Shown here: one piece after another, positions 393 to 15,748 of the stretch
Position numbering within the stretch: position 1 is the stretch's first letter
Layout of the letters: the number at the start of each line of letters is the position of its first letter
NCBI RefSeq assembly: GCF_965363235.1
Contig: NC_134842.1
Span: forward strand, 34,168,757 to 34,184,504
Length of the DNA stretch: 15,748 nt
Direction of reading: 5' to 3'
Source: Mytilus galloprovincialis
Lineage: Eukaryota
Position numbers and translations under genes: made by a program
The notes under the pieces: generated by a model
What the model was told of the DNA's origin: nothing
What the model saw: the letters and a program-made list of their open reading frames with translations, nothing else
The model's database searches: none

Positions 393-1532
393 CCTCCATC
401 AAGTTCACATTTACATCATATGATTGACAATGTTAGATTACTGATATCCATAATATCTGTCTTATATTTGAAATTAACTAGACAGTTCAATTATAGATTA
501 AGTATATAACTATACAATGGTATATGAACTCATACAGTTGTATCTCATTATGATAATACGATAGTCAGGGTTGCATTGAAACCTTGGATGAATTAAGTTT
601 TATTGCTAGATCTTGCAAAAGAATTGTTCACATGAATTTGGTTATACCCTACTACTGAGTGGATGGACATATAATGTTACACATATCCTCCCTTCCATCA
701 TTTTTTTTAGTGTTTTTCCATCAATCAGGCAACTCGAATGATTGCCTTAATATGTTATACCCATGAACATGATGGATGCTAGTGAGTTGCAAATATGGAC
801 TGGAATATAAACATGCTGATATGATAATTTAAGGTTAATAGTAAGGTTAAAACCATGATTTAACCCCAGTTTGAAGATGACCAAAACACAGAATAATTCA
901 AACAGTAGTGTCTTGTCTTTTGGTCCTCAATATATAAGTATTCATTGTGAGTCTATGTTTGCAAATCCCTCGGATAAAGTTTAGCATTGTCAGTTTTAGC
1001 TCTTCTGCTTTTGCACTTTGTTTTTGTCAGTTTTAGCTGTTCTCCTTTAACACTTTTTTATGTTGTACTATATTTTATATGTTTAGGTTTTCAAATTTTA
1101 AGTCTGTACCATGCATGGTTATGTTTGTGTTATAAAAACATATTTTGTACAGATGAAATTTATATTAACGTTTTTGCTTTTTGTAAAAGCATGCATTCTC
1201 TTACTGTTTTGCATTTTTATCTTTTGTATTTTAGGTTTTTTTAAGGGGTTTTGTATTGATAAGAGGTTGTTGACAATAATATATACCAGTATGTTTAAAT
1301 TGTTTGCAGATTTTTTAAAGATATTTTCATTTTCTATCCTGTATTGTTTCATATTTTGTAATGCCAAGGCCTTTCAAAGTTACAGTAAGGGTTTCACACA
1401 TTGTTGAAAGTTAAACCTTGATAATGGCATGATGTACTACTTCTTCAATACAAAATCAAGGAGTCTACCAAAAGGACGTATATGGCTAAGCAGCTGCTGT
1501 GTTAATACCAAGGATCATATGGAAATAAGTAT

Positions 1533-1690
1533 ATAAACTCATCATAGATACCAGGACTAAATTTAGTGTATACGCCAGACGCGCGTTTCGTCTACAAAAG
1601 ACTCATCAGTGACACTCGAATCCAAAAAAGTTAAAAATGCCAAATAAAGTACGAAGTTGAAGAGCATTGAGAACCAAAATTCCTAAAAGT
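1533..1690 (-). mobile_element. SINE-like / retrozyme-like short interspersed element (~156 bp), copy 1. It carries a minimal type-I hammerhead ribozyme motif on the minus strand.
   Basis: It is about 90% identical to 4603..4758 and clearly homologous to the degenerate copies at about 5312..5452 and 5633..5774. The shared ends are 'ataaactcatcatagatacc...' and '...accaaaattcctaaaagt'. Confidence 0.6.
1565..1619 (-). ncRNA. Hammerhead ribozyme motif (type I, minimal helix III), copy 1.
   Basis: The minus strand reads gagugucaCUGAUGAgucuuuuguagacGAAAcgcgcgUC|uggcguauacac. CUGAUGA is plus 1603-1609. Helix II is GUCU/AGAC with a UUUGU loop (plus 1590-1602). GAAA is plus 1586-1589. Helix III is A-U plus C-G closing a palindromic GCGC loop, with a GUC triplet. 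The predicted cleavage is 3' of the C that pairs with plus g1578. Helix I pairs ucac...ugg with ca...guga using G-U wobbles. All core nucleotides needed for catalysis are present. Confidence 0.55.
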
Positions 1691-2939
1691 TTTGCCAAAT
1701 ACAGCTAAGTTAATCTATGCCTGTTGTAGAAAAGCCTTAGTATTTCAAAAAAATCAAAAATTAGGAATATTGGTGGTTGTCACCAAGGAGAAGAAAAAAC
1801 TTATGCAGTTGTACAACAGAGATATTACTGGCCAAATATTATATCCTTGTTATTCGAGTATACATCTACATAGTGTATGTATTTTATTGTCTCCATCCAT
1901 TTTTATTCGTGATCAACTCAATATGCTACTAATGTCCAAGTTTTGTGTTTGAATTTAATTGTCCAAGCTAATTGCAAATTCAATTGCATCTACTCACAAA
2001 ACAATTGTTCTATTAAAGTGTGGAAATACTAAAATTGGAGCTGGCACAAAACCGTTTTTTAATGACTTTTTGACAATTTTGTGTCCAGATAAAATTGTCA
2101 TTTTCTATGGTAATGAGTAAGTTAAGTATTATTTTTAGTAATTATATAACACATTTCTCGCAATAACTGCATTATTCTTAGAAACTGCCAGTTGGTATAT
2201 TTGTTTTGTTTTTATTGGTATTGGATATGATTGTGCACCAGGGTTTCTTTCAGGATTAACTTTAAATCATTTTTTTGGACAAAACAAACTTCAGCTTAAT
2301 TAATGTACTTTCTTAGAAAATGAAATTTTTGCTGGGTTTTGGAAATATTTGCTTGTTGTAATTTATCAAAGACCAATTGTAAATGATTTAAATGCACACA
2401 CAATTTTACTGAAAATCAAAATGTAATTTGTATAAACTGAAGCTACTGTCCAGTTCAATTCGTTTAAAACCTTTGTCAGGAGTATTTGAAAGGCATATGG
2501 TGCATTTATTAATCCAAAGCTTTTTCTTTTGAATTGGTAATAGTGACTTAAGTTTTAGCAGTATCACTCAGATTTCAATTCTCAAGGCTAAATAAGTATT
2601 TTTTTAGGCTAAATACAACTTTAGACGTCAAGGTAGAATTGTAATCTGAGTAATACTGGTGAAACTCAAGTCACTATATAATAACTTGGGTGGTAATTAA
2701 TTCAGATTAATGTTGTTTCTGGGTCAAGACGTATGTACACTAATCAACCTAAAGAATCAAGCACTAAATCATGACAGCTTTGGAATATATTTAAAGCAAC
2801 AATAATAAAGTCATCATCAACCCATAGAAAAAGTTTTACTCTTAATGCCTTTTTTAGTATGCAATACAGCAAACATAAAATCTTATTCTGCACCCTTTTT
2901 TACTTTTTTTTATGGCTCTATTATATCATTTTTTAACTC

Positions 2940-3050: not shown

Positions 3051-3900
3051 ACTTCTGTTAGAAAGCCATTGCATGGATTGAACCCAAACATGACATAAAT
3101 GTTCTTTATGATGTGCTGACCAAGTGTTGTTACTTTGTAGTTGATCCATCATCCAAGATGGCTGCCAGTAGAGGACTTAGTTTAACATATAGGAACCTAT
3201 AGGAAATACATACAAATGTCTTCTTTTAGAGAACCACTGAATGGAATGTTACCAACCATGGCAGGAATGTTCCTTATGAGGTGCTGACCAATCTTGTTAC
3301 TTTGTAGCCGATCCATCATCCAAGATGGCCGCCAGCGGATCACTTACTTTACCATAGGACCCTACGGGAAATACATATAAATGTCCTCTTTTAGAGAACC
3401 TCTGAATTGAATGGAGCCAAACATAGCATAAATATTCCTTATGAGATGCTGACCAAATGTTGTTACTTTGTAGCCGATCCTTCGTCCAAGATGGCCGCCA
3501 GCGGAGGACTTAGTTTAACATTGGACCCATGGAAAACCATACAAATGTCTTCTTTTTTAGAGAACCACTGAAAGGAATGAAACCAAACATTGCATGAATT
3601 TTCCATATGATGTGCTGACCAGGTGTTGCTACTTTGTAGCTGATCAATTATCCAAGATGACTGCCAGCTTGGGATTTAGTTTAACATAGGACCCATGGGA
3701 AATACATACAAATGTCTTCTTTTAGAGTACCACTGCTTGCAATGAATTTGAAACTTAATTACTACGTCATAAATGTTCCTTTTGAGGTGGTGATCAAGTT
3801 CTGCTTCATTGTTGCTGATTTACTGTTCAAGATGGCCACCCGGATTTATTACTACATGTAAATTATGGGGCCAATATTTTACCAAATTTGGCCTCACTCA
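3050..3900. repeat. Tandem satellite array, about 5 monomers of ~166-167 bp (the last monomer is more diverged at ~175 bp).
   Basis: The conserved monomer landmark 'CCAAGATGG' starts at 3153, 3320, 3486, 3652 and about 3827. Each monomer begins 'tcttcttttagagaaccactg...'. The core is 'gtgctgaccaa(g/a)tgttgttactttgtagc(c/t)gatcc(a/t)tc(a/g)tccaagatggc(c/t)gccag'. Confidence 0.85.
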
Positions 3901-4094: not shown

Positions 4095-4610
4095 GGTTTT
4101 TAGCTCACCGGGTCCGAAGGGTCCCATGTGAGCTTATGCCATCACTTGACGTCAGTCGTCGTCTGTCGTCGTCGTTAACTATTTTAAAAATATTCTTCTC
4201 TGAAACTACTGGACCAAATACCTTCAAACTTACAGTGAATGTCTGATAGTATCTAGTTAATAAATTGTATCCGAGGTTTTGATCTACCAACAAACAGGGC
4301 TAAAAATAGAACATAGGGTTCAAATGCAGTTTTTGGTTTATATCTCAAAAACTAAAGCATTTAGAGCAAATCTGATAGAGGTAAAAATGTTAAACAGGTC
4401 AAGATCCACCAGCCCTGAAATTTTCAGACAAATCAAACAAACCATTGTTGGGTTGCTGCCACTAAATTGGTAATTTCAAGGATATTTTGCAGTTTTGGGT
4501 TATTATCTTGAATATTATTGAAGATAGAGATAAATTGCAAACAGCAAAAATCTTAAACATCTTCTCTGAAACAACTGGGCCTAATACTTCTAAACTTTAA
4601 ATAAACTCAT
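4095..4610. repeat. Second copy of the composite element: a head with a 7-bp stem hairpin 'agctcac...gtgagct', then a long (~365 bp) monomer variant bounded by direct 'tcttctctgaaacNactggNccNaatac' motifs.
   Basis: The head is homologous to 2940..3050. The motif at 4194-4235 is repeated at 4559-4600. The internal 'caggtcaagatccaccagccctg' is homologous to the satellite core 'catccaagatggccgccagcgg'. ORFs 4105..4293(-) and 4279..4473(+) lie inside it and are treated as spurious. Confidence 0.55.
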
Positions 4611-4758
4611 CATAGATACCAGGACTAAATTTTGTATATACGCCAGACGCGCGTTTCGTCTACATAAGACTCATCAGTGACGCTCGAATCCAAAATAGTT
4701 AAAAAGGCCAAAAAAAGTACGATGTTGAAGAGCATTGAAGACCAAAATTCCTAAAAGT
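4603..4758 (-). mobile_element. SINE-like / retrozyme-like element, copy 2.
   Basis: It is collinear with 1533..1690 and begins immediately after the composite satellite block. Confidence 0.6.
4633..4687 (-). ncRNA. Hammerhead ribozyme motif (type I), copy 2.
   Basis: The minus strand reads gagcgucaCUGAUGAgucuuauguagacGAAAcgcgcgUC|uggcguauauac. CUGAUGA is plus 4671-4677. The helix II stem is preserved with a loop change (UAUGU). The helix I change U to C (plus 4682) turns a G.U wobble into a G-C pair. The predicted cleavage is next to plus g4646. Confidence 0.55.
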
Positions 4759-5236
4759 AACTGTTTAAAGCAAAAACTGATATACATTATAGCTCAAAAA
4801 TATAAATCATGTTTGATGAATGAATTGGGCTAAAAAAAAACTAGGTAAGCGATTAATTACTTGCTAAGGCTGACGTAAGTTTTAAAGTCCTTTTATTACG
4901 GTGCCTAACAGTAACCCTAACAGGTATTATATTAAACTCATAATGTTGGTGATAACTTCTGGTACAGTTTTAAACCTGCAAAGTGTTCATTATCCTTATT
5001 TATAGTTTAATTAGGAAAAATACAACAAGGTTAACAAAACAATCCCAACATTTAATACCATGCAGTTTGTTAGGGTTACAGGCTTTACTACGTTGAGTTA
5101 AAGAGCGAGAAACACGCAAAATATATAAATAGATTGCGGTGGAAATAAAATATAAGAAACATTACCTAACTCCTCATGTTAAAACACAACGTGAAGGTTA
5201 TTGTTTTTACATATTTGCTGATAAAATATTTTCAAC

Positions 5237-5879
5237 AACGTTTAATTTGCATACTTGAAATAAAGCATCTGCAATTAATTTCAGAACCCTTCTACGCATG
5301 ACTAGATTACAATAAACACATCATAGAAACCAATATTAAAATTCCCTACGCCAGATTTTGCTTACAAAAGACTATCAGTGACACTTAAAAAAAAAAGTTC
5401 AAATGGCCAAATAATATTACGAAGTAGAAATACAAAAACGAAACCCTTTTTCAACTCCAAAACGAAGTTGTTGCAATTTATATAAAACAATGAACAGAGA
5501 GAAAATGGTTTAGCGAATCAAATTTTATCTAAAGAGTGTGTGTGTTTGTTTATTAACAACGTTTAATTTGCATACTTGAAATAAAGCATCTGCAATTAAT
5601 TTCAGAACCCTTCTACGCATGACTAGATTACAATAAACACATCATAGAAACCAATATTAAAATTCCCTACGCCAGATTTTGCTTACAAAAGACTATCAGT
5701 GACACTTAAAAAAAAGAAGTTCAAATGGCCAAATAATATTACGAAGTAGAAATACAAAAACGAAACCCTTTTTCAACTCCAAAACGAAGTTGTTGCAATT
5801 TATATAAAACAATGAACAAAGAGAAAATGGTTTAGCGAATCAAATTTTATCTAAAGAGTGTGTGTGTTTGTTTATTAAC
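5237..5879. repeat. Tandem duplication, 2 x ~321 bp. Each unit contains a degenerate (ribozyme-dead) copy of the SINE-like element at about 5312..5452 and 5633..5774.
   Basis: 'aacgtttaatttgcatacttgaaataaagcatctgcaattaatttcag...gtgtgtgtttgtttattaac' occurs at 5237-5557 and again at 5558-5879 with only a few substitutions or indels. In the embedded element the hammerhead box is mutated to CUGAUAG and the GAAAC box is lost. Confidence 0.85.
5870..5875 (-). promoter_or_regulatory. Candidate AATAAA polyadenylation signal for the minus-strand Mab-21/cGLR gene, about 40 nt 3' of its stop codon. A duplicate sits at 5548-5553 in the other repeat unit.
   Basis: Plus 'tttatt' equals minus AATAAA. Its position relative to the stop at 5912-5914 is appropriate. 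No transcript data are available. Confidence 0.3.
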
Positions 5880-5911
5880 GACGGTTTGTTCCAAATAAAA
5901 CAAGCATCATT

Positions 5912-8095
5912 TTATTTATTTAATGTACTGAAAATTGTTTGAAATATCGAATTAGGCAACGCAAAAATTCTTCTCGTATAGTTTTCATCACATCCATAGT
6001 CATTAAAGCTATCAAAAAATCTAGATAACATTGAAACATCGATATCACGAAACCATGAAAGATCTCCATCAGATTCAATATGAAAAAAATCGTTCATCGT
6101 AAAGATTTCACTTTCACAATCATTTTGAACATTTCGTGTTATAATTCTGCCCGTGATTTTCATGATAGTTACGATTAAATCATGAACTTGTTTCTCGTAT
6201 TCTGATCCAACGAAATGAACTTGTATCATTTTGTTAAACTCCTCCTCACTATGTGGTAAATCAGATTGTCTTAGATAGCATAAAAATCGCAAAAAATGAC
6301 AATATACTTCAGGACAAACTTGATAAAAAAGTGCATTTCTTTGCCTATAGTCTTCTATGGATAACAAATTTAAAAAACAATTAAAAAATCTCGACAGTTC
6401 TCTCACAGATATTTTTCCGGACTTATCAGAAATAGTGATATTTTCTGTATAATAATGATTTAAACAACCTAGAAACTCAGAACTCAACTCCTTTGTCATA
6501 TGTGTTGTGCTAGAACATTCCACAACAGTTTTAGTGCCAACATGGAAACATCTAAACTTGACGCTTTCTAAAACAAAACTGGTGACTTGCAAGCATTCTT
6601 GGAATTTTCCCTGATTATACAACCAGCTTGCTAGCATTGTCTTACCACACACCAAATCTGCGCTACATCCTATACACAATAAATGTATGTATAGTTTTCG
6701 TAAGGTATGTAGTTGTTTATGGGTCATTTTCTTATCATCTATTTCTAAAAAGTGACAAATGTGACTCAGAAAGCGACATCGGATAACAGGTGTATTTACC
6801 ATAGATTTTACATATGATAGGAGGTATTTCTGTCGTTTAGCGATGATCATATTGCTCATAATGAGTTTTGCGTGTCTTGACAGATCTAAAATAAGTCTTA
6901 AGCATTCTTTTTTAAACTTTACATTTTGAACACAATAAAGCGATCGTATTGATAGTGGATACTTTAAAAACGTTTTAAGTTTTCTCAAGGTTGAACTTAA
7001 AGTAACCCAGCTGAATCCACTGTGCCGTATTTCGCACAAGAGCGCCAGCAATTTTTCTTTTCCTGCTGGTGTGAAACGTTCTAAAAACATATTATTGATT
7101 CGAACAAAGTAGTTTGGACAATTTTCCTCTACAATAAATTGAATCAGGCGTTCCAAGCATAAATGGAATGATAAAATAAGGAAATCGACATTCCAAATAG
7201 ATTGTGGATTGTCTTCTATTACCCAGAAAATTGTGGTCTTCAAAAAGTAGGAACACAAATGTTCTGCTATATCATGATGGACGCATATTACCTCTTTTAA
7301 AATGAGTTTCAGTAATCCATATACTAACAGTTGTGTATGACTAAAAGAATGAACTAGCTCCCTTTCTGCAAATGAAAAGGATAGTCTCCATTCAATTTCT
7401 TCTGTGGTTCTAGCATCCACTTTACTACTGACAGGAACTAAATGACAACTTTGACTTTGAATATTTTGGATCATTTCCCGTGAAGGCCATCCGTATTTTC
7501 TTTTTCTAAGCACCCATTCGCTCGCAATGTTTGGCCAAGTGACAGTTTTTATACAATAAACTAAATCAAAGTCTTCTCCACAAGTTGAAGCAGTCATAGC
7601 TGGTCCATGAGGTTCCATTTGAAAAATCAATTTCATAAAAGGCACGAAAACAGAAATACTTGTTTTAAAGAAAGAACTTGAAAGCAGAGTAGACGGATAA
7701 CCTCTCATCCAAGTTTCAACCAGAACGTATCCTGGTTTTAAGTCAGGTAACATTGAATCGTATCGACATGACAGCAAGGGATTCGATTTATCATCACCTT
7801 CATACGCTTCAATTGTGGAGTCTGTCATCATAATATCTGTGTCGCTTCCTTTCATATCCAAACCCTCGGCTTTACTTCCGCTTGCAAGTAGTGTATTACT
7901 CAAAAAATCTATATTATGAGGATATTTCTTATCAATTATTCTCCTGCGACACCTAACAATGTACTCATTTCCAATGTGATATGATAAAAAGCAAAACAGA
8001 ATTTTGGATTGTGAGTAGAAGTTTATGAGTCGGTTTCTTTGGTTGCCTGAAAAATAATTAAACATAGAAACTGTTTTTACTACTGAAATGGCCAT
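5912..8095 (-). CDS. Mab-21 domain nucleotidyltransferase, a cGAS-like receptor (cGLR)-type protein of 727 aa with a C-terminal ~300-aa alpha-helical (possibly TPR-like) extension. It is a single exon.
   Basis: There is a true ATG at 8093-8095 (tactactgaaATGgcc). The ORF is an uninterrupted 2184 bp in DNA that is otherwise closed by stops every ~60 bp. Motifs: LLASGSKAEG (G73-S74, the NTase GS motif); SDTDIMM (D85 and D87, the [DE]h[DE]h pair); GEDFDLV (D175/D177, with the third acidic residue 90 aa downstream, as in cGAS where the DxD-to-third-Asp distance is ~92); EWRLSFSFAE (res 235-244, the Mab-21 signature). Confidence 0.85.
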   Translation of the reverse strand: MAISVVKTVSMFNYFSGNQRNRLINFYSQSKILFCFLSYHIGNEYIVRCRRRIIDKKYPHNIDFLSNTLLASGSKAEGLDMKGSDTDIMMTDSTIEAYEGDDKSNPLLSCRYDSMLPDLKPGYVLVETWMRGYPSTLLSSSFFKTSISVFVPFMKLIFQMEPHGPAMTASTCGEDFDLVYCIKTVTWPNIASEWVLRKRKYGWPSREMIQNIQSQSCHLVPVSSKVDARTTEEIEWRLSFSFAERELVHSFSHTQLLVYGLLKLILKEVICVHHDIAEHLCSYFLKTTIFWVIEDNPQSIWNVDFLILSFHLCLERLIQFIVEENCPNYFVRINNMFLERFTPAGKEKLLALLCEIRHSGFSWVTLSSTLRKLKTFLKYPLSIRSLYCVQNVKFKKECLRLILDLSRHAKLIMSNMIIAKRQKYLLSYVKSMVNTPVIRCRFLSHICHFLEIDDKKMTHKQLHTLRKLYIHLLCIGCSADLVCGKTMLASWLYNQGKFQECLQVTSFVLESVKFRCFHVGTKTVVECSSTTHMTKELSSEFLGCLNHYYTENITISDKSGKISVRELSRFFNCFLNLLSIEDYRQRNALFYQVCPEVYCHFLRFLCYLRQSDLPHSEEEFNKMIQVHFVGSEYEKQVHDLIVTIMKITGRIITRNVQNDCESEIFTMNDFFHIESDGDLSWFRDIDVSMLSRFFDSFNDYGCDENYTRRIFALPNSIFQTIFSTLNK

Positions 8096-9957: not shown

Positions 9958-11202
9958 TAAATACTCATCTGTTATGTAAATATCAGGCGTCCATGGTTCA
10001 TCGTACATCTTTTTGTTTTTGCTTGCAACTTCCTTGCGTAGATATCCATGAACATTTCTTTCCGATATCAAGCTATGACTCCTGTCTGTCTCAATGTTAT
10101 GAATCTTTATACTGCAAGAAGTAGGAATAGCGTTCTCTGCGTTTTGAATATCGATGGGTTAATGCAACAATCTCGTATCTAGAAAGTTGTGACTTTTCAG
10201 AAACCGACATACAAAGTTTGACTGTAAATGTAAATTCTATTTTAATACAGAAATGTATCAAATTAACATAGATTGCTAAAATAGACATAGTTACTATCCT
10301 TTTATAATTTGATGCTAATTGGTTGTCAGATAAAAGATATAATTGCACTTGAAACGTTTAACGGATATATGCATTCCATAATGATTAAACAGTAATACAG
10401 ATGTTTGTGTCACAAGGTCATTACTAGTGATAACAGATTTGAGCTTGTGTGGTATATCAAATTCTAAATGTTGTTTGGTAAGCATCATTGCATTTGCAAG
10501 CGATAAGAGATTGTTGAATTTGAAAAACGAATTAATATAACTAATTATTTTTTATTTGTTTTGAATTATATACTGTGAATAAATTCAAAATAACACTTGA
10601 TATAATTAAAAAGATGATATAAATACAGGGAAAACTATACACAAAGTAATCATAGAAAGTGAATTAAAAATAATATATAATTATTCATAAACAACATTAT
10701 TTTTTTTGACAAATTATTTTCCAATCATTTTTTTTTTGTTTGTTTTAAAAGGTTACATTATTTTAAAGAATTTATGGTAAAGGATCCTTTTTATTTTTAT
10801 AATAAATACTATTATTTTCTGAAACACATGATGAAATTATATACACATAAAGAAATTGAATTTATTAATGTATTGTTTGAAGTAGTGCACTGAATCTTAA
10901 AGAAGAAAAGACAAAAATTCCAATAAAGAAAGATCGAATGTTGTTAATAAAACAAAATATAGTAATTTTTAATTCGATATAAGTGACAATTAGACTAAAA
11001 TAATTCCATGTACTTGATCACAATCAAATATAACACAGCAACAATCAATGAGTTTCCTAAGGTTACGTGAATGGAAAATGAAATGCATAATTCACTATAT
11101 CAGTTAATGTTATAAATGTCGCAATTGTTCTTCTTCCTAATATTCCCTTAAGTTGTATTAATATAACTGATAAACCAAGATTGTTAGATTGTATTTGTTT
11201 GG

Positions 11203-11298
11203 AAGACAACTGATGCAGTTTCCAGTCTTAATCATTATTCTTTTTCGGAGAAGACAACTGATGCAGTTTCCAGTCTTAATCATTATTCTTTTTCGGAG
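11203..11298. repeat. Perfect 48-bp tandem duplication (2 copies: 11203-11250 and 11251-11298).
   Basis: 'aagacaactgatgcagtttccagtcttaatcattattctttttcggag' occurs twice, identical. On the minus strand it encodes '...PKKNND*' including the stop of ORF 11276..11512. Confidence 0.9.
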
Positions 11299-11512
11299 TC
11301 AATTTCATCCTCCTCAACATCGGATCTGGGAGTATATTTGGTGTTTTGTCGTCAGATTTTAATCCTTTGTAGAGGCTGTGGTACTCTCTTGGAATAACAC
11401 TAGTTTTACAAAGATTCAGTAAATCTTTCTTTTTAGCAGCATATCTCTTCCGTATCTCCATTAAATTAACGGGACGACCTTTTCTCGTCTGTTCTTTCAC
11501 TCTCGTTGACAT
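11276..11512 (-). CDS. Hypothetical small basic protein or exon (78 aa, Lys/Arg-rich), immediately downstream (minus sense) of the 45-bp minisatellite.
   Basis: There is a true ATG (plus 'cat' at 11510-11512, with 'gttgaCATcag'). It is open for 78 codons in AT-rich DNA. It is +1-frame relative to the minus-strand repeat ORF 11466..11795. There is no recognisable domain. Confidence 0.2.
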   Translation of the reverse strand: MSTRVKEQTRKGRPVNLMEIRKRYAAKKKDLLNLCKTSVIPREYHSLYKGLKSDDKTPNILPDPMLRRMKLTPKKNND

Positions 11513-12175
11513 CAGCCTGTTTGATAGTTGATTCTGTAACAGGGTTTACAGTGACATTAGCCTGTTGAATAGTTGATTCCGTATCAGGGTTTACAGTGAC
11601 ATCAGTCCGTTGGATAGTTGATTCCGTATTAGGGTTTACAGTGATATCAGCCTGTTGGATAGTTGATTCCGTATCAGCATTTACAGTGACATCAGCCTGT
11701 TGGATAGTTGATTCCGTATCAGCATTTACAGTGACATCAGCCTGTTGGATAGTTGATTCTGTATCAGGCTTTACAGTGACATTAGCCTGTTGCATAGTTG
11801 ATTCCGTATCAGCATTTACAGTGACATCAGCCTGTTGGATAGTTGATTCTGTATCAGGCTTTACAGTGACATTAGCCTGTTGAATAGTTGATTCCGTATC
11901 AGGGTTTACAGTGACATCAGCTCATAGGATAGTTGATTCCGTATTAGGGTTTACAGTGATATCAGCCTGTTGGATAGTTGAATCCGTAGCAAGGTTTACA
12001 GTGACATCAGCCTGTTGGATAGTTGATTTCGTATCTGGGTTTACAGTGACATCAGCCTGTTGGATAGTTGATACCGTATCAGGATATACAGTGACATCAG
12101 CCTGTTGGATAGTTTATTCCGTATCAGGGTTTACAGTGACATCGGCCTGTTGGATAGTTTATTCCGTATCAAAGT
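11506..12175. repeat. Minisatellite: 45-bp unit x ~15 copies (unit 'gtgacatcagcctgttggatagttgattccgtatcagggtttaca').
   Basis: The period was measured directly ('gtga(c/t)atcag' at 11641 and 11686). Copies are 85-100% identical. It is open in frame on the minus strand (15-aa repeat TESTIQQADVTVNPD) and on the plus strand (WIVDSVSGFTVTSAC). Confidence 0.9.
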
Positions 12176-14820
12176 TTCCTCCAAGTTATCATCTGAGGAC
12201 CACTATATGTCTGCCATATTCTTTTTTATATCTACAACAGATACGAAATGTAATGCAGATATTTTCTTTCAAACATTTTTCCTTAAACATATATAATCTA
12301 GTATTATTATATTAAATGTTACATAATTTTTGTATATATGAAATAATCGTGTACAAGTGTTTTGTATTTGAAATGCTTAAAATAGTAAATAGATATATAT
12401 TTTCTTACATACTTATGCAGCTTATTTATCTTTTAAAAAAAGTCATATGTTACGATTTATTTTTTGCATTTAAAAAATATATACTTAATTTGTATGTTTC
12501 ATTAAAAAATTGATTCATTTTTCAATATACTACTTTTTCCGTATAAACTTACCAAATAATATCTGTAGGCATACATTTTTTTCTTTTTCTTTTTTCTCTT
12601 GTCTCAAATAATATAGATGCGACTGCAAAAACAAAACAAAAAACATGCGCTTATTGTTACTAACGAAATTTACAAAGATACAAACATCTTTAATTTATTA
12701 TCTTTTTAAATATTTTTCTCTAAGAAACAGCTAGGTTTAATAAATTGTACGGTAAATAATTATGTTATGTTATAATTTCAATTTAAAAACGTAAATTAAA
12801 ATGTAAAAGTTATTAAAGTATAATTGAATTAAAAATTAATTATCTATCTTAATATGCATTATTTTTAAACAAAATATACAAACCTTTTTTTCTAATTTGC
12901 AGCTTTTTTGCTGAATATCAAAATTCCATGTCAAAACCCATCATCAATCAAAACAATTACTTGGTTTAATCTCAGTTGATGTTTATATTATCTAATATGA
13001 GGTCATGCCAGTAACATTTAATTGACCTTGCTTGTTTGATAACCTGCTGATATTCACATTTCTTTAACAGCTGCAATACATTATCTGATGTTGTGGGGGA
13101 AATGGTTTTAGGTGTTGAAATAAATAAATCAAAATGTCAATTGCAATATGAAGGTAGTACTTGTTACAGTGTTGAGGCATATACATTTTCATACATTGTT
13201 TGTTAATAGGAATGCAACACACCTTATAGTTAGATATTTTGTTGAGGCGCTTGGTGCAAGCTATTTAATTTTAAGAATAAATCGTTCATTCTTATAGTAA
13301 TACGAGATAAGTCGTTCATGTTGGCATACTTTCGTTATCAAACTTATAATAGATTGATGAACATGTCAATTAAAAATTTGTTTTATGACCAATTGCTCTA
13401 AAAAATTTCGGGAATATTATATAATACTTTTGTCTTTAAAAAATCATATAATCTCAAAACTGCAAAATTTTGAGTTAAGAGGTTGATGCATTAACCCCTC
13501 GATATGGATTCGTTGAATTTCGTCTGTAGACAGATCGTTACTCTTTGAAGACTTCTTATTCACAAAGTCGTTCACAAAGATGACTGAATGATACTGAGAG
13601 TAACTACTGTATAATTCTTTTCGTACCTGAGTAATCTTACTCTGGTACCATACATTTCTCAATAAACTTGTATTTGTTGATATTTTCTTGGTAAAATAAC
13701 CGTATACATTTTGGTTGGACATTGTTGTATTGATAGATTTTTCAGCTGTATACTGAAAAATATAACGCTTAAGTTACAGGCAAACATTGTAATTATAATG
13801 TTCTTATGTATTAAAAAGAAAAATAAGATGACGTTTTTCAAGTCAACAGACTATACTAGAAATTTTGGTCACTTAATCATTGATCAATTAGGATGTGACA
13901 TGACGCCAAATTTTTATACATCCCGAAAAGCCAAACGGAAGTCAACTGCTTTCAATTTTTTTAAGATTTAGATTTGTGTTACAACAACCCAAACATAATT
14001 CAGAACATATAAGTGGAATCACATATAAGCGACCTTAATCTTGTTAAAATCATGGTAAATACAAAAAGGCAAAAATTAATAAAACACCACCAAGGAGAAC
14101 TTATTTGTTCATGGAAGGTATAAGATCAGACCTAGAATCATATCGCAAGCAATTCAAGGAAGACAGTAGTAAGAACGACGTTGAAGCATTGTGATATCCG
14201 TTTAACACTAAGGAACGAAACAATTGTGAGGAGCATACCTTCTAAACAGATTGTAACAAGATGGAACTTTCCCTGGACGACAACAGAAAGAAAACATAGA
14301 TTGTTAAATAAAGTCACAAATCAGAAAACAACAACACCGATAGATATTAAACATTACAGGTCAGATTTTCTTAGGAAGAGTTTCCTATAGATTACAATAA
14401 AAATATTGAAGACTGTACCAGGAATTATCAAACAACTGACAAGTATCAACTCACACATATATACAGGGACCGGAGATTAGAATATACAACACATCAATAA
14501 ATACAGGATCAGTACCCTCCAACTGGTTTGTCGGAAATACTATCAACATTTTTTTAAAGGGATACAAAACAGGTCAACCAAACAACCGACCTGTTTCCCT
14601 TACGTCTGTACAATGTAAAATTACTCTTTAGTGCACTATGGACCATTTATATGGAAATAAATTCCTGCCATCATAACAGTTTGAATTTCGAAAGTACCAC
14701 TGATGTGAACAGCAACTCACCAGCACTGCTAAAGATCAACGCAAATAAGAGATCAGAAACGCTAAGCAAATACAGTTCGAAGAGACCGGACGCAAGTATA
14801 AACGCCCGTTGTTTATGTTT

Positions 14821-14850
14821 GACGCCGGAAGTATACCTATGACGTCACGT
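14821..14850. promoter_or_regulatory. CpG-containing motif cluster: ETS-like CCGGAAGT (14825-14832) and a perfect palindromic CRE TGACGTCA (14840-14847).
   Basis: These motifs lie in the only CpG-enriched stretch of the window ('gacgcaagtataaacgcccgtt...gacgccggaagtatacctatgacgtcacgtag'). They match textbook CREB/ATF and ETS sites. The function is untested. Confidence 0.2.
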
Positions 14851-14959
14851 AGTGTAGGGACCAAAGAAGATAACATTTTTTCGCGGATTTTTTTTTAATG
14901 AAGATTTTACACTGAAATTATGATTGAAATTTAATTATGAACTTGTTTTGCATTAGAAT

Positions 14960-15127
14960 AGAGATAACTGTATTGTATTTGAAGCTTTGCGGACGTCCAT
15001 CGGTAGTTTTACTGTCGCAAATACCCGTTTACCTGTTTCCGCTCCGCGTCGCCAGGTAAACTAAATTTGCGACAGTAAAACTACCGATGGACGTCCGCAA
15101 AGCTTCAAATACAATACAGTTATCTCT
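14960..15127. repeat. Perfect long inverted repeat or hairpin: 63-bp arms (14960-15022 and 15065-15127, 100% complementary) and a 42-bp spacer that holds an inner 8-bp stem (tttacctg 15027-15034 / caggtaaa 15053-15060).
   Basis: Arm 'agagataactgtattgtatttgaagctttgcggacgtccatcggtagttttactgtcgcaaat' is followed downstream by its exact reverse complement. No clear target-site duplication flanks it (left '...gaat', right 'taaa...'). Confidence 0.9.
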
Positions 15128-15748
15128 TAAATGACATTTAATCTATTCAGTCTGAATATGGTTATACTGACCAGTTTACCTTGAATTATATTTTTAGAAT
15201 CTTGATAAATGCTATATATCTTTATGGAAAATACAGTTGTATATAATTTTCTCACATTATATCAATAGAATAAGCAAGATTTGGTTAGATTATTTGATTG
15301 ATTGAAAGGAGAAATGTGAATCGGTATGCATGATAACTACAACTAATTAATCATAAAATGCGTTAAAGACATTAAAGATTGATGAATAATCATTATTGAA
15401 TAATCTTAAATAATAGATAATAACTGAGTGAAAGGATATAAAACTGAACGAAAGAGTTTTACTTGTGTATAAATAGGAAGTAGCTAAATGGCTAAATATT
15501 TATTTTAAAGCTTAATTTTTTGAGCCTTTAAGGGAAACATTTTTTGTATGTTTAGTGTTTGTTCGTATAAAGATTTCATATCGTAAACATTGAACACAAA
15601 AGTTATAAATTCATGTTGATCTTCAAGTTGATATTTGATGTAGCCATATGGTATACAAATAATCTTGTGCCCTCAAATTAACACTTCATGTAAGCAAAGA
15701 CACTTGAAAAAAATGTATTATGTAGTTTTAAAATTTAGATACAAATTT

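Follow-up and report, generated by a model that had tools for sequence, protein, structure and literature searches.

Positions 14960-15127 of the Mytilus galloprovincialis DNA analyzed here form a perfect hairpin just downstream of a block carrying CRE and ETS motifs, which raises the question of whether the locus is a host hairpin-RNA (endo-siRNA) gene with its own promoter or the trace of a recently inserted mobile element. The whole stretch of 15,748 nucleotides (contig NC_134842.1, positions 34,168,757 to 34,184,504 of the forward strand) is referred to as the window; with a G+C content of 32%, it is AT-rich animal DNA. The coordinates of the relevant features are collected in Table 1.

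Table 1. Features of the window discussed in the text (position 1 is the first nucleotide of the window).
Feature	Position	Strand	Basis or remark
Mab-21-domain (cGLR-like) gene, main ORF	5912..8095	-	Pfam; first coding exon from ATG 13722
5'-truncated copy (family positions ~220-540) of a ~540-bp dispersed non-autonomous repeat, replacing ~97 bp of ancestral DNA	14801..15127	+	Orthologue alignments; L006 and L008 matches
ETS-like CCGGAAGT (14825-14832) and CRE TGACGTCA (14840-14847)	14825..14847	+	Motif positions in the window
3' subterminal inverted repeat TTGCATTAGAAT	14948..14959	+	5'-terminal partner ATTCTAATGCAA missing from the truncated window copy
Left arm of the terminal palindrome	14960..15022	+	Repeat search, RNA fold
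Hairpin spacer with 9-bp inner stem (15027-15035 / 15053-15061)	15023..15064	+	RNA fold
Right arm, the conserved 3' end of the repeat	15065..15127	+	Comparison of copies
TAAAT, ambiguous: last bases of the element or first host bases	15128..15132	+	L010 CTCTTAAAT, L008 CTCTTAATT

Structure of the hairpin and comparison with orthologous loci

The repeat search of the window recovered the 168-bp hairpin exactly as it had been described in the original prediction, with arms of 63 nt that are 100% complementary and a spacer of 42 nt. Folding of positions 14950-15137 as RNA, a calculation that the prediction had suggested, gave -128.9 kcal/mol, compared to -36.3 +/- 3.9 kcal/mol for 200 shuffles (z = -23.7). 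The inner stem reported for the spacer was found between GUUUACCUG and CAGGUAAAC, with a length of 9 bp instead of the 8 bp claimed, and the palindrome reported within the arms corresponds to GGACGTCC, which is common to both of them, at 14991 and 15089. The hairpin had been placed ~110 bp downstream of the CRE/ETS stretch, and the distance measured from the CRE was 113 bp; nor was any flanking direct repeat seen beside the hairpin in the window, as expected from the reported lack of an obvious TSD. The description of the CRE/ETS block as the only CpG-rich stretch was correct in one respect, namely that 14801-15127 has the highest CpG count (21 in 327 bp, with a window median of 6 and a maximum elsewhere of 14), but the CpG observed/expected ratio exceeded 1 in several other stretches as well.

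Orthologous loci were recognized by their shared C1q and Mab-21 neighbors and were taken from M. trossulus (L001), M. edulis (L004), M. coruscus (L003), and M. galloprovincialis (L005 and L002, the latter being the more divergent of the two contigs). The alignment of the M. coruscus locus near the site was too poor to inform, and the hairpin and the CRE/ETS block were missing at all four of the informative loci. Homology to L001, L004, and L005, at 93-96% identity, ended at ~14800 and restarted at 15127/15128; where the window has 327 bp (14801-15127), composed of the CRE/ETS block, an AT-rich stretch, and the hairpin, there stands a segment of ~97 bp that is common to the other genomes and absent from the window. 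The orthologues lack both the "promoter" motifs and the hairpin, and therefore both were derived together in the window haplotype. The insertion is a haplotype-specific presence/absence polymorphism in Mytilus, and the CpG richness of 14801-15127 is a property of the inserted repeat and not a host CpG island. Since the hairpin arms gave no match in the comparator loci, they were not copied from local sequence.

Copies and anatomy of the repeat family

Other copies of the block were sought by comparing its six-frame translations with a protein collection, looking for spurious ORFs called over such copies, followed by an exhaustive profile-free search from one match and a six-frame query from the left half of the repeat; one more ORF, P0128, was recovered by the six-frame and profile-free searches. 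The family sample consisted of six copies including that of the window, four of them full length. These four are located on contigs L006, L007, L008, and L010 of the ENA assembly ERZ6864376, while L009 belongs to an M. galloprovincialis draft assembly. The identity of the 327-bp block to copies at unrelated loci in another mussel assembly was 85-92%: for example, L006:1803-2113 matched window 14800-15123 at 88.5% and L008:964-1298 matched window 14794-15136 at 87.9%, with unrelated flanks in both cases. The ENA copies align mutually over ~540 bp and reach ~220 bp further left than the window copy, which is therefore 5'-truncated and intact at the hairpin end. The copy in L009 (1095-1306) holds family positions 1-212 only, that is, the left part, in a fragmented draft assembly, and ends within ~10 nt of the beginning of the window copy. 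A SET-domain gene model (P0130, peptide ILMQLVCINSSDWMTVSVKFSISLSVTK) includes part of the L009 repeat in its coding sequence, probably as a result of exonization or mis-annotation. Exact-pattern scans, using a 24-mer and a 22-mer for JGI metagenomes and a 20-mer for IMG/VR, were negative, and a literal literature search with four strings from the element gave no match.

A full copy is ordered as ATTCTAATGCAA, a body of ~350 bp, TTGCATTAGAAT, and the 168-bp palindrome that ends the element. Five of the six copies start with ATTCTAATGCAA, and its inverted copy TTGCATTAGAAT directly precedes the hairpin. The two sequences form a perfect 12-nt pair in L006; L007 also has a perfect 12-nt pair, with a different outermost base (TTTCTAATGCAA / TTGCATTAGAAA), and the 11-nt core of the inverted repeat is exact in L008 and L010. 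Each full copy has the 11-mer TTCTAATGCAA once per strand; L009 and the window have a single occurrence each, and the rest of the ~110 kb of Mytilus loci has none. Three motifs lie in the body, namely an inverted CCAAT box (CTGATTGG), an ETS-like site, and a CRE. L006 and L010 have retained the CRE unchanged, L007 and L008 carry mutations in it, and the ETS core CCGGAAG was found among the other copies only in L006, where it reads CCGGAAGC, the family majority; the ETS-like CCGGAAGT of the window is a private variant. The ETS-like and CRE motifs belong to the repeat consensus and not to the host locus.

At the other end, the palindrome follows the right repeat without a gap; it closes the element in three copies (window, L006, and L008) and is partly deleted in L007 and L010. 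Homology between copies stops at ...CAGTTATCTCT or, as in L010 and the window (CTCTTAAAT), no more than 5 nt beyond it. The terminal sequences of the unit, ATTCTAATGCAA... and ...GTTATCTCT, do not form an inverted-repeat pair with each other. No flanking direct repeat of at least 3 nt at a consistent offset was found in the four full copies. The base preceding ATTCTAATGCAA is C, A, A, T, and A in five copies (T in one of the five), and the base following the 3' end is T in four out of five. At the position of TAAATGAC in the window, the empty sites have TATATGAC; this empty site (...ATTAT^TATATGAC) is T-T-compatible at the 3' junction, an observation that covers the 3' junction of the window copy alone.

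These features bear on the possibility that the hairpin alone is a foldback element or MITE, which would have been nested once in the progenitor of the family and may exist as a solo element mobilized by a TIR transposase. Such elements share with the hairpin their long perfect arms, short spacer, and small size, as well as the perfection of young copies, and the position of the hairpin outside the 12-nt inverted-repeat pair allows it to be read as an add-on. However, the hairpin is joined to the same left sequence, over 160-380 bp, in all four of the other hairpin-retaining copies, and homology in these four ends at or within ~5 nt of its right edge, so that it constitutes one end of a longer, asymmetric unit without TIRs or TSD. 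Moreover, no solo copy was recovered in the six-frame and profile-free searches, no further copy of the hairpin turned up when it was compared by BLAST with the window and ~110 kb of Mytilus loci, and no TA, TTAA, or other duplication was found around the hairpin or the full element in any copy. We consider this explanation unlikely, and the stand-alone foldback or MITE proposed in the original prediction is not what the copies indicate: the hairpin is an integral end-piece of a dispersed repeat.

The age of the copies was compared by scoring private changes in those alignment columns that show agreement among three of four copies. Of 301 such columns, the window copy differed privately in 5, none of them in the hairpin, compared to 21 in L006, 17 in L008, and 87 in L007, and it is the copy closest to the family majority; it also has the most CpGs (21, versus 20, 13, and 8 in the others). 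The CRE and ETS mutations of the older copies are mostly at CpGs. While the right arm shows 1-4 private changes per 60 columns in L006, L007, and L008, the left arm is the less stable one in the other copies: the L006 hairpin has 9 mismatches and 1 gap, the L008 hairpin has 7 mismatches and 11 gapped positions, all of them left-arm deletions (8 nt and 3 nt), and L007 has lost its left arm almost wholly in a 76-bp deletion. Among the other copies, L006 and L008 are the two with both arms retained, and neither showed compensatory change, with 0 pairs altered on both sides. The arms of the window are perfect because the copy is young and not because of selection for pairing. A very young mobile-element insertion, one of the options originally put forward, is supported by its absence at the orthologous loci examined, its relatives elsewhere, and its closeness to the family majority. 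In L010 (2352-2465), the spacer is inverted and partly deleted, with TTAGTTTACCTGGCGACGCGGAGC as the reverse complement of window 15041-15064, and a deletion follows; this flip of the spacer between the arms is as expected from recombination between inverted repeats. The Mytilus copies hence document the decay of a palindrome through arm deletions and spacer inversion.

Element class and origin of the window copy

We interpret the hairpin as the 3'-terminal palindrome of a ~540-bp non-autonomous Mytilus repeat that was probably mobilized as a Helitron-like group 2 element (Helentron/HINE), a reading to which we assign a probability of about 0.6. Group 2 Helitron-like elements are characterized by terminal inverted repeats of 12-16 nt, the right one being followed by a stem-loop, and by insertion between T and T (PMC11417382), and HINEs by subterminal inverted repeats of 12-15 bp, a 3' palindrome, and a TT target without duplication (PMC4067079); oysters are rich in HINEs (PMC7492417). 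The order of the parts and the lack of duplication in the Mytilus repeat are as in group 2, which is therefore the preferred assignment. As in DINE-1 of Drosophila and Cg_HINE of the Pacific oyster, an 11-12-nt 5'-terminal inverted repeat has a 3' partner that is followed by a palindrome, and the repeat is dispersed, non-coding, and devoid of a TSD, in hosts (bivalves) known to be rich in such elements. In this model, the 3' stem-loop on the displaced single strand would serve as the right terminal signal, with the RepHel transposase supplied in trans. Inserted copies decay freely.

Several features differ from those of the described HINEs. The stem of the Mytilus element is 63 bp long, in contrast to the 5-10-bp palindromes of mite HINEs and the "short stem loop" of DINE-1, and its palindrome reaches the end of the element, whereas described HINE palindromes are situated 8-35 bp from the end. 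Because the long palindrome runs to the end, the 3' inverted repeat is located ~170 nt from it and not 38-60 nt. Central tandem repeats or a microsatellite are missing, an inner repeat near the 5' inverted repeat is not evident, and the T-T target is not seen on the 5' side. The assignment to the Helentron/HINE group is one by layout. Canonical Helitrons (group 1) likewise have asymmetric ends, no TSD, and a 3' hairpin as end signal, in their case a short one ~11 bp from the 3' end, but the Mytilus ends, read on both strands, contain no CTRR terminus and no 5' TC with 3' CTRR, and no A-T target is evident from the flanks. The repeat family defined here was not found in the literature searched; its mildly unusual traits are the great length of the terminal palindrome, within a layout like that of Helentrons, and the promoter-type motifs inside the element.

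A different class of element would be a SINE-like retroposon whose 3' stem-loop is read by a LINE reverse transcriptase, in which case the window copy would represent a 5'-truncated insertion accompanied by a target deletion. This would account for a copy that is truncated at 5' and intact at 3', for the 97-bp target deletion, and for the microhomology-like similarity at the 5' junction. It is nevertheless distinctly improbable, given that all four full copies are without TSD, that the 3' end (...GTTATCTCT(TAAAT)) has no A-rich or microsatellite tail, that no convincing pol III A/B boxes were recognized by eye, and that the conserved pair of 5'-terminal and 3'-subterminal inverted repeats has no role in such a model.

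Returning to the Helentron-like reading, the window copy retains an intact natural 3' end, located at a T^T-compatible site, and lacks the left ~220 bp of the element, and the host has lost 97 bp. At the left junction, host GAAGAGAC-CGGACGCAAG and element GAAGCGGCACAGAAGCAAG agree at 14 of 19 positions, a similarity no greater than chance when the wider flank was tested against shuffles. The simplest history would consist of two steps, in which a full element inserted at ...ATTAT^TATATG... and a deletion of ~320 bp then took place between these two loosely similar stretches; integration of an already truncated copy in a single step could also have led to the same arrangement. In Helraiser, a well-studied Helitron, it is the 5' end that is essential. 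Insertion of a 5'-truncated copy in one step is thus a poor fit to rolling-circle transposition, and for this reason the second, deletion step is assumed. An old repeat copy in the host flank left of 14800, or in the 97 bp of the other haplotypes, was also considered and rejected (z = 0.9 to 2.8 versus shuffles).

The same junctions could be explained without any transposition into the site, if a double-strand break with a loss of ~97 bp had been repaired using an ectopic copy of the repeat as template for 327 bp (templated or filler-DNA repair). The loss of host sequence, the partial copy, and the 14/19 resemblance at the left junction would agree with such a repair. On the other hand, the right junction coincides within 0-5 nt with the natural 3' end of the element, which is unexpected for random copying, and the left-flank similarity did not exceed that of the shuffles; we regard templated repair as quite unlikely.

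Hairpin-RNA readings and genomic context

A more speculative extension of the Helentron-like reading concerns the cargo of the repeat, which might be a mobile cassette with its own pol II promoter-type module (inverted CCAAT, ETS, and CRE) and a giant terminal palindrome. Fresh copies would then give rise to long hairpin RNAs feeding small-RNA silencing, for example, of an autonomous partner, or the CRE/ETS module could be dropped near host genes. Separately, the giant palindrome together with the flipped spacer of L010 could hint at hairpin-primed replication at a Helitron-like end. We see this as a long shot; if true, fresh copies would place a CRE/ETS module near host genes, in this case an immune-type Mab-21/cGLR-like gene.

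Even less credit can be given to the host hairpin-RNA (endo-siRNA) gene driven by an adjacent CRE/ETS promoter, which we consider very unlikely. The arrangement is suggestive, as a cluster of pol II promoter-type motifs precedes, by 113 bp and in the same orientation, a strong and perfect stem of 63 bp, both move together in the repeat, and a long inverted repeat would yield perfect dsRNA if transcribed, as in the hpRNA/endo-siRNA loci of Drosophila. In contrast to those loci, the Mytilus hairpin shows no conservation, has no target homology found, and is a member of a decaying repeat family. It is not a conserved gene, because it is absent from the orthologous loci (four of four); the older copies lose pairing without compensatory change and lose the motifs through CpG decay, and the arms match nothing else in the window that could be a target there. 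The six-frame search including the hairpin frames gave no real protein, its only two matches being spurious ORFs that cover other copies, and the generic miRNA-hairpin match in Rfam was sub-threshold, with 34 bits versus a gathering score of 67. The host promoter and hairpin-RNA gene of the original prediction are therefore not upheld, with motifs that lie within the repeat, are missing from the orthologues, and disappear together with CpGs and pairing in older copies. Incidental siRNA/piRNA or dsRNA could nonetheless be produced by read-through of a fresh copy with motifs 113 bp upstream of its stem. What looked like a striking perfect hairpin next to "promoter" motifs is one young transposon fragment and not a host RNA gene, which makes the locus a clean negative example.

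An assembly or library artifact such as a chimeric fold-back read, which can yield perfect palindromes, is extremely improbable in view of the same palindrome at the same place in the repeat in independent contigs of ERZ6864376 with natural-looking decay, and a sequencing-adapter origin was rejected on account of these independent copies and of the hairpin centre, which we take not to be a recognized sequencing adapter.

Scans for other RNA features and signals gave little. ARAGORN found no tRNA or tRNA-like part in the window, and Rfam at gathering scores gave no match over the whole window; a permissive Rfam scan of 14700-15250 returned only a sub-threshold mir-299 match and a meaningless bacterial sRNA match. 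A bacterial promoter/terminator scan produced hits at chance level only, with models that are irrelevant to animal DNA.

The window holds one long ORF, with the Pfam domains Mab-21 and Mab-21_C, which is 99% identical to an M. galloprovincialis protein and 90% identical to the M. trossulus orthologue. No contig was matched by exact look-ups of this Mab-21 protein and of P0001. In the gene models of M. trossulus and M. edulis, coding begins at the position of the window ATG at 13722 on the minus strand, and the insertion at 14801-15127 is consequently situated ~1.1-1.4 kb upstream of the start codon (the hairpin itself ~1.2-1.4 kb), the polymorphism putting CRE/ETS motifs ~1.1 kb upstream of it. 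The window haplotype thus carries a young 5'-truncated transposon fragment of a fairly ordinary kind upstream of an immune-type gene. The Mab-21/cGLR-like protein had 333 homologues at E <= 1e-5. Mytilus and other bivalves account for the great bulk of the matches listed, a distribution that points to a large expansion of the family. By eye, GSKAEGLDMKGSDTDIMM in the protein resembles a nucleotidyltransferase active site.

A second haplotype-specific insertion of ~3.35 kb was observed at window 10156-13501, within the intron that separates the main Mab-21 ORF from the first coding exon; the loci of M. edulis, M. trossulus, and M. galloprovincialis L005 do not carry it. The inserted sequence shows terminal inverted repeats of ~15 nt, CGA(T/G)GGGTTAATGCA, an apparent 4-bp ATAT duplication, and a 45-bp x 14.8 tandem array (11507-12171) with very AT-rich flanks, adjoined by a perfect 48-bp x 2 tandem duplication (11202-11298) inside the same insertion. 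Directly downstream of the stop of the Mab-21 ORF, a 322-bp unit occurs twice at 99% identity (window 5234-5883), and a 166-bp x 4.2 tandem array with 80% identity is located further downstream (window 3054-3746). Finally, window 1529-1758 and 4596-4758 contain two copies of another dispersed repeat, matched at 80-91% identity by L007:190-262 and by several sites within the loci of M. edulis, M. trossulus, and M. galloprovincialis.
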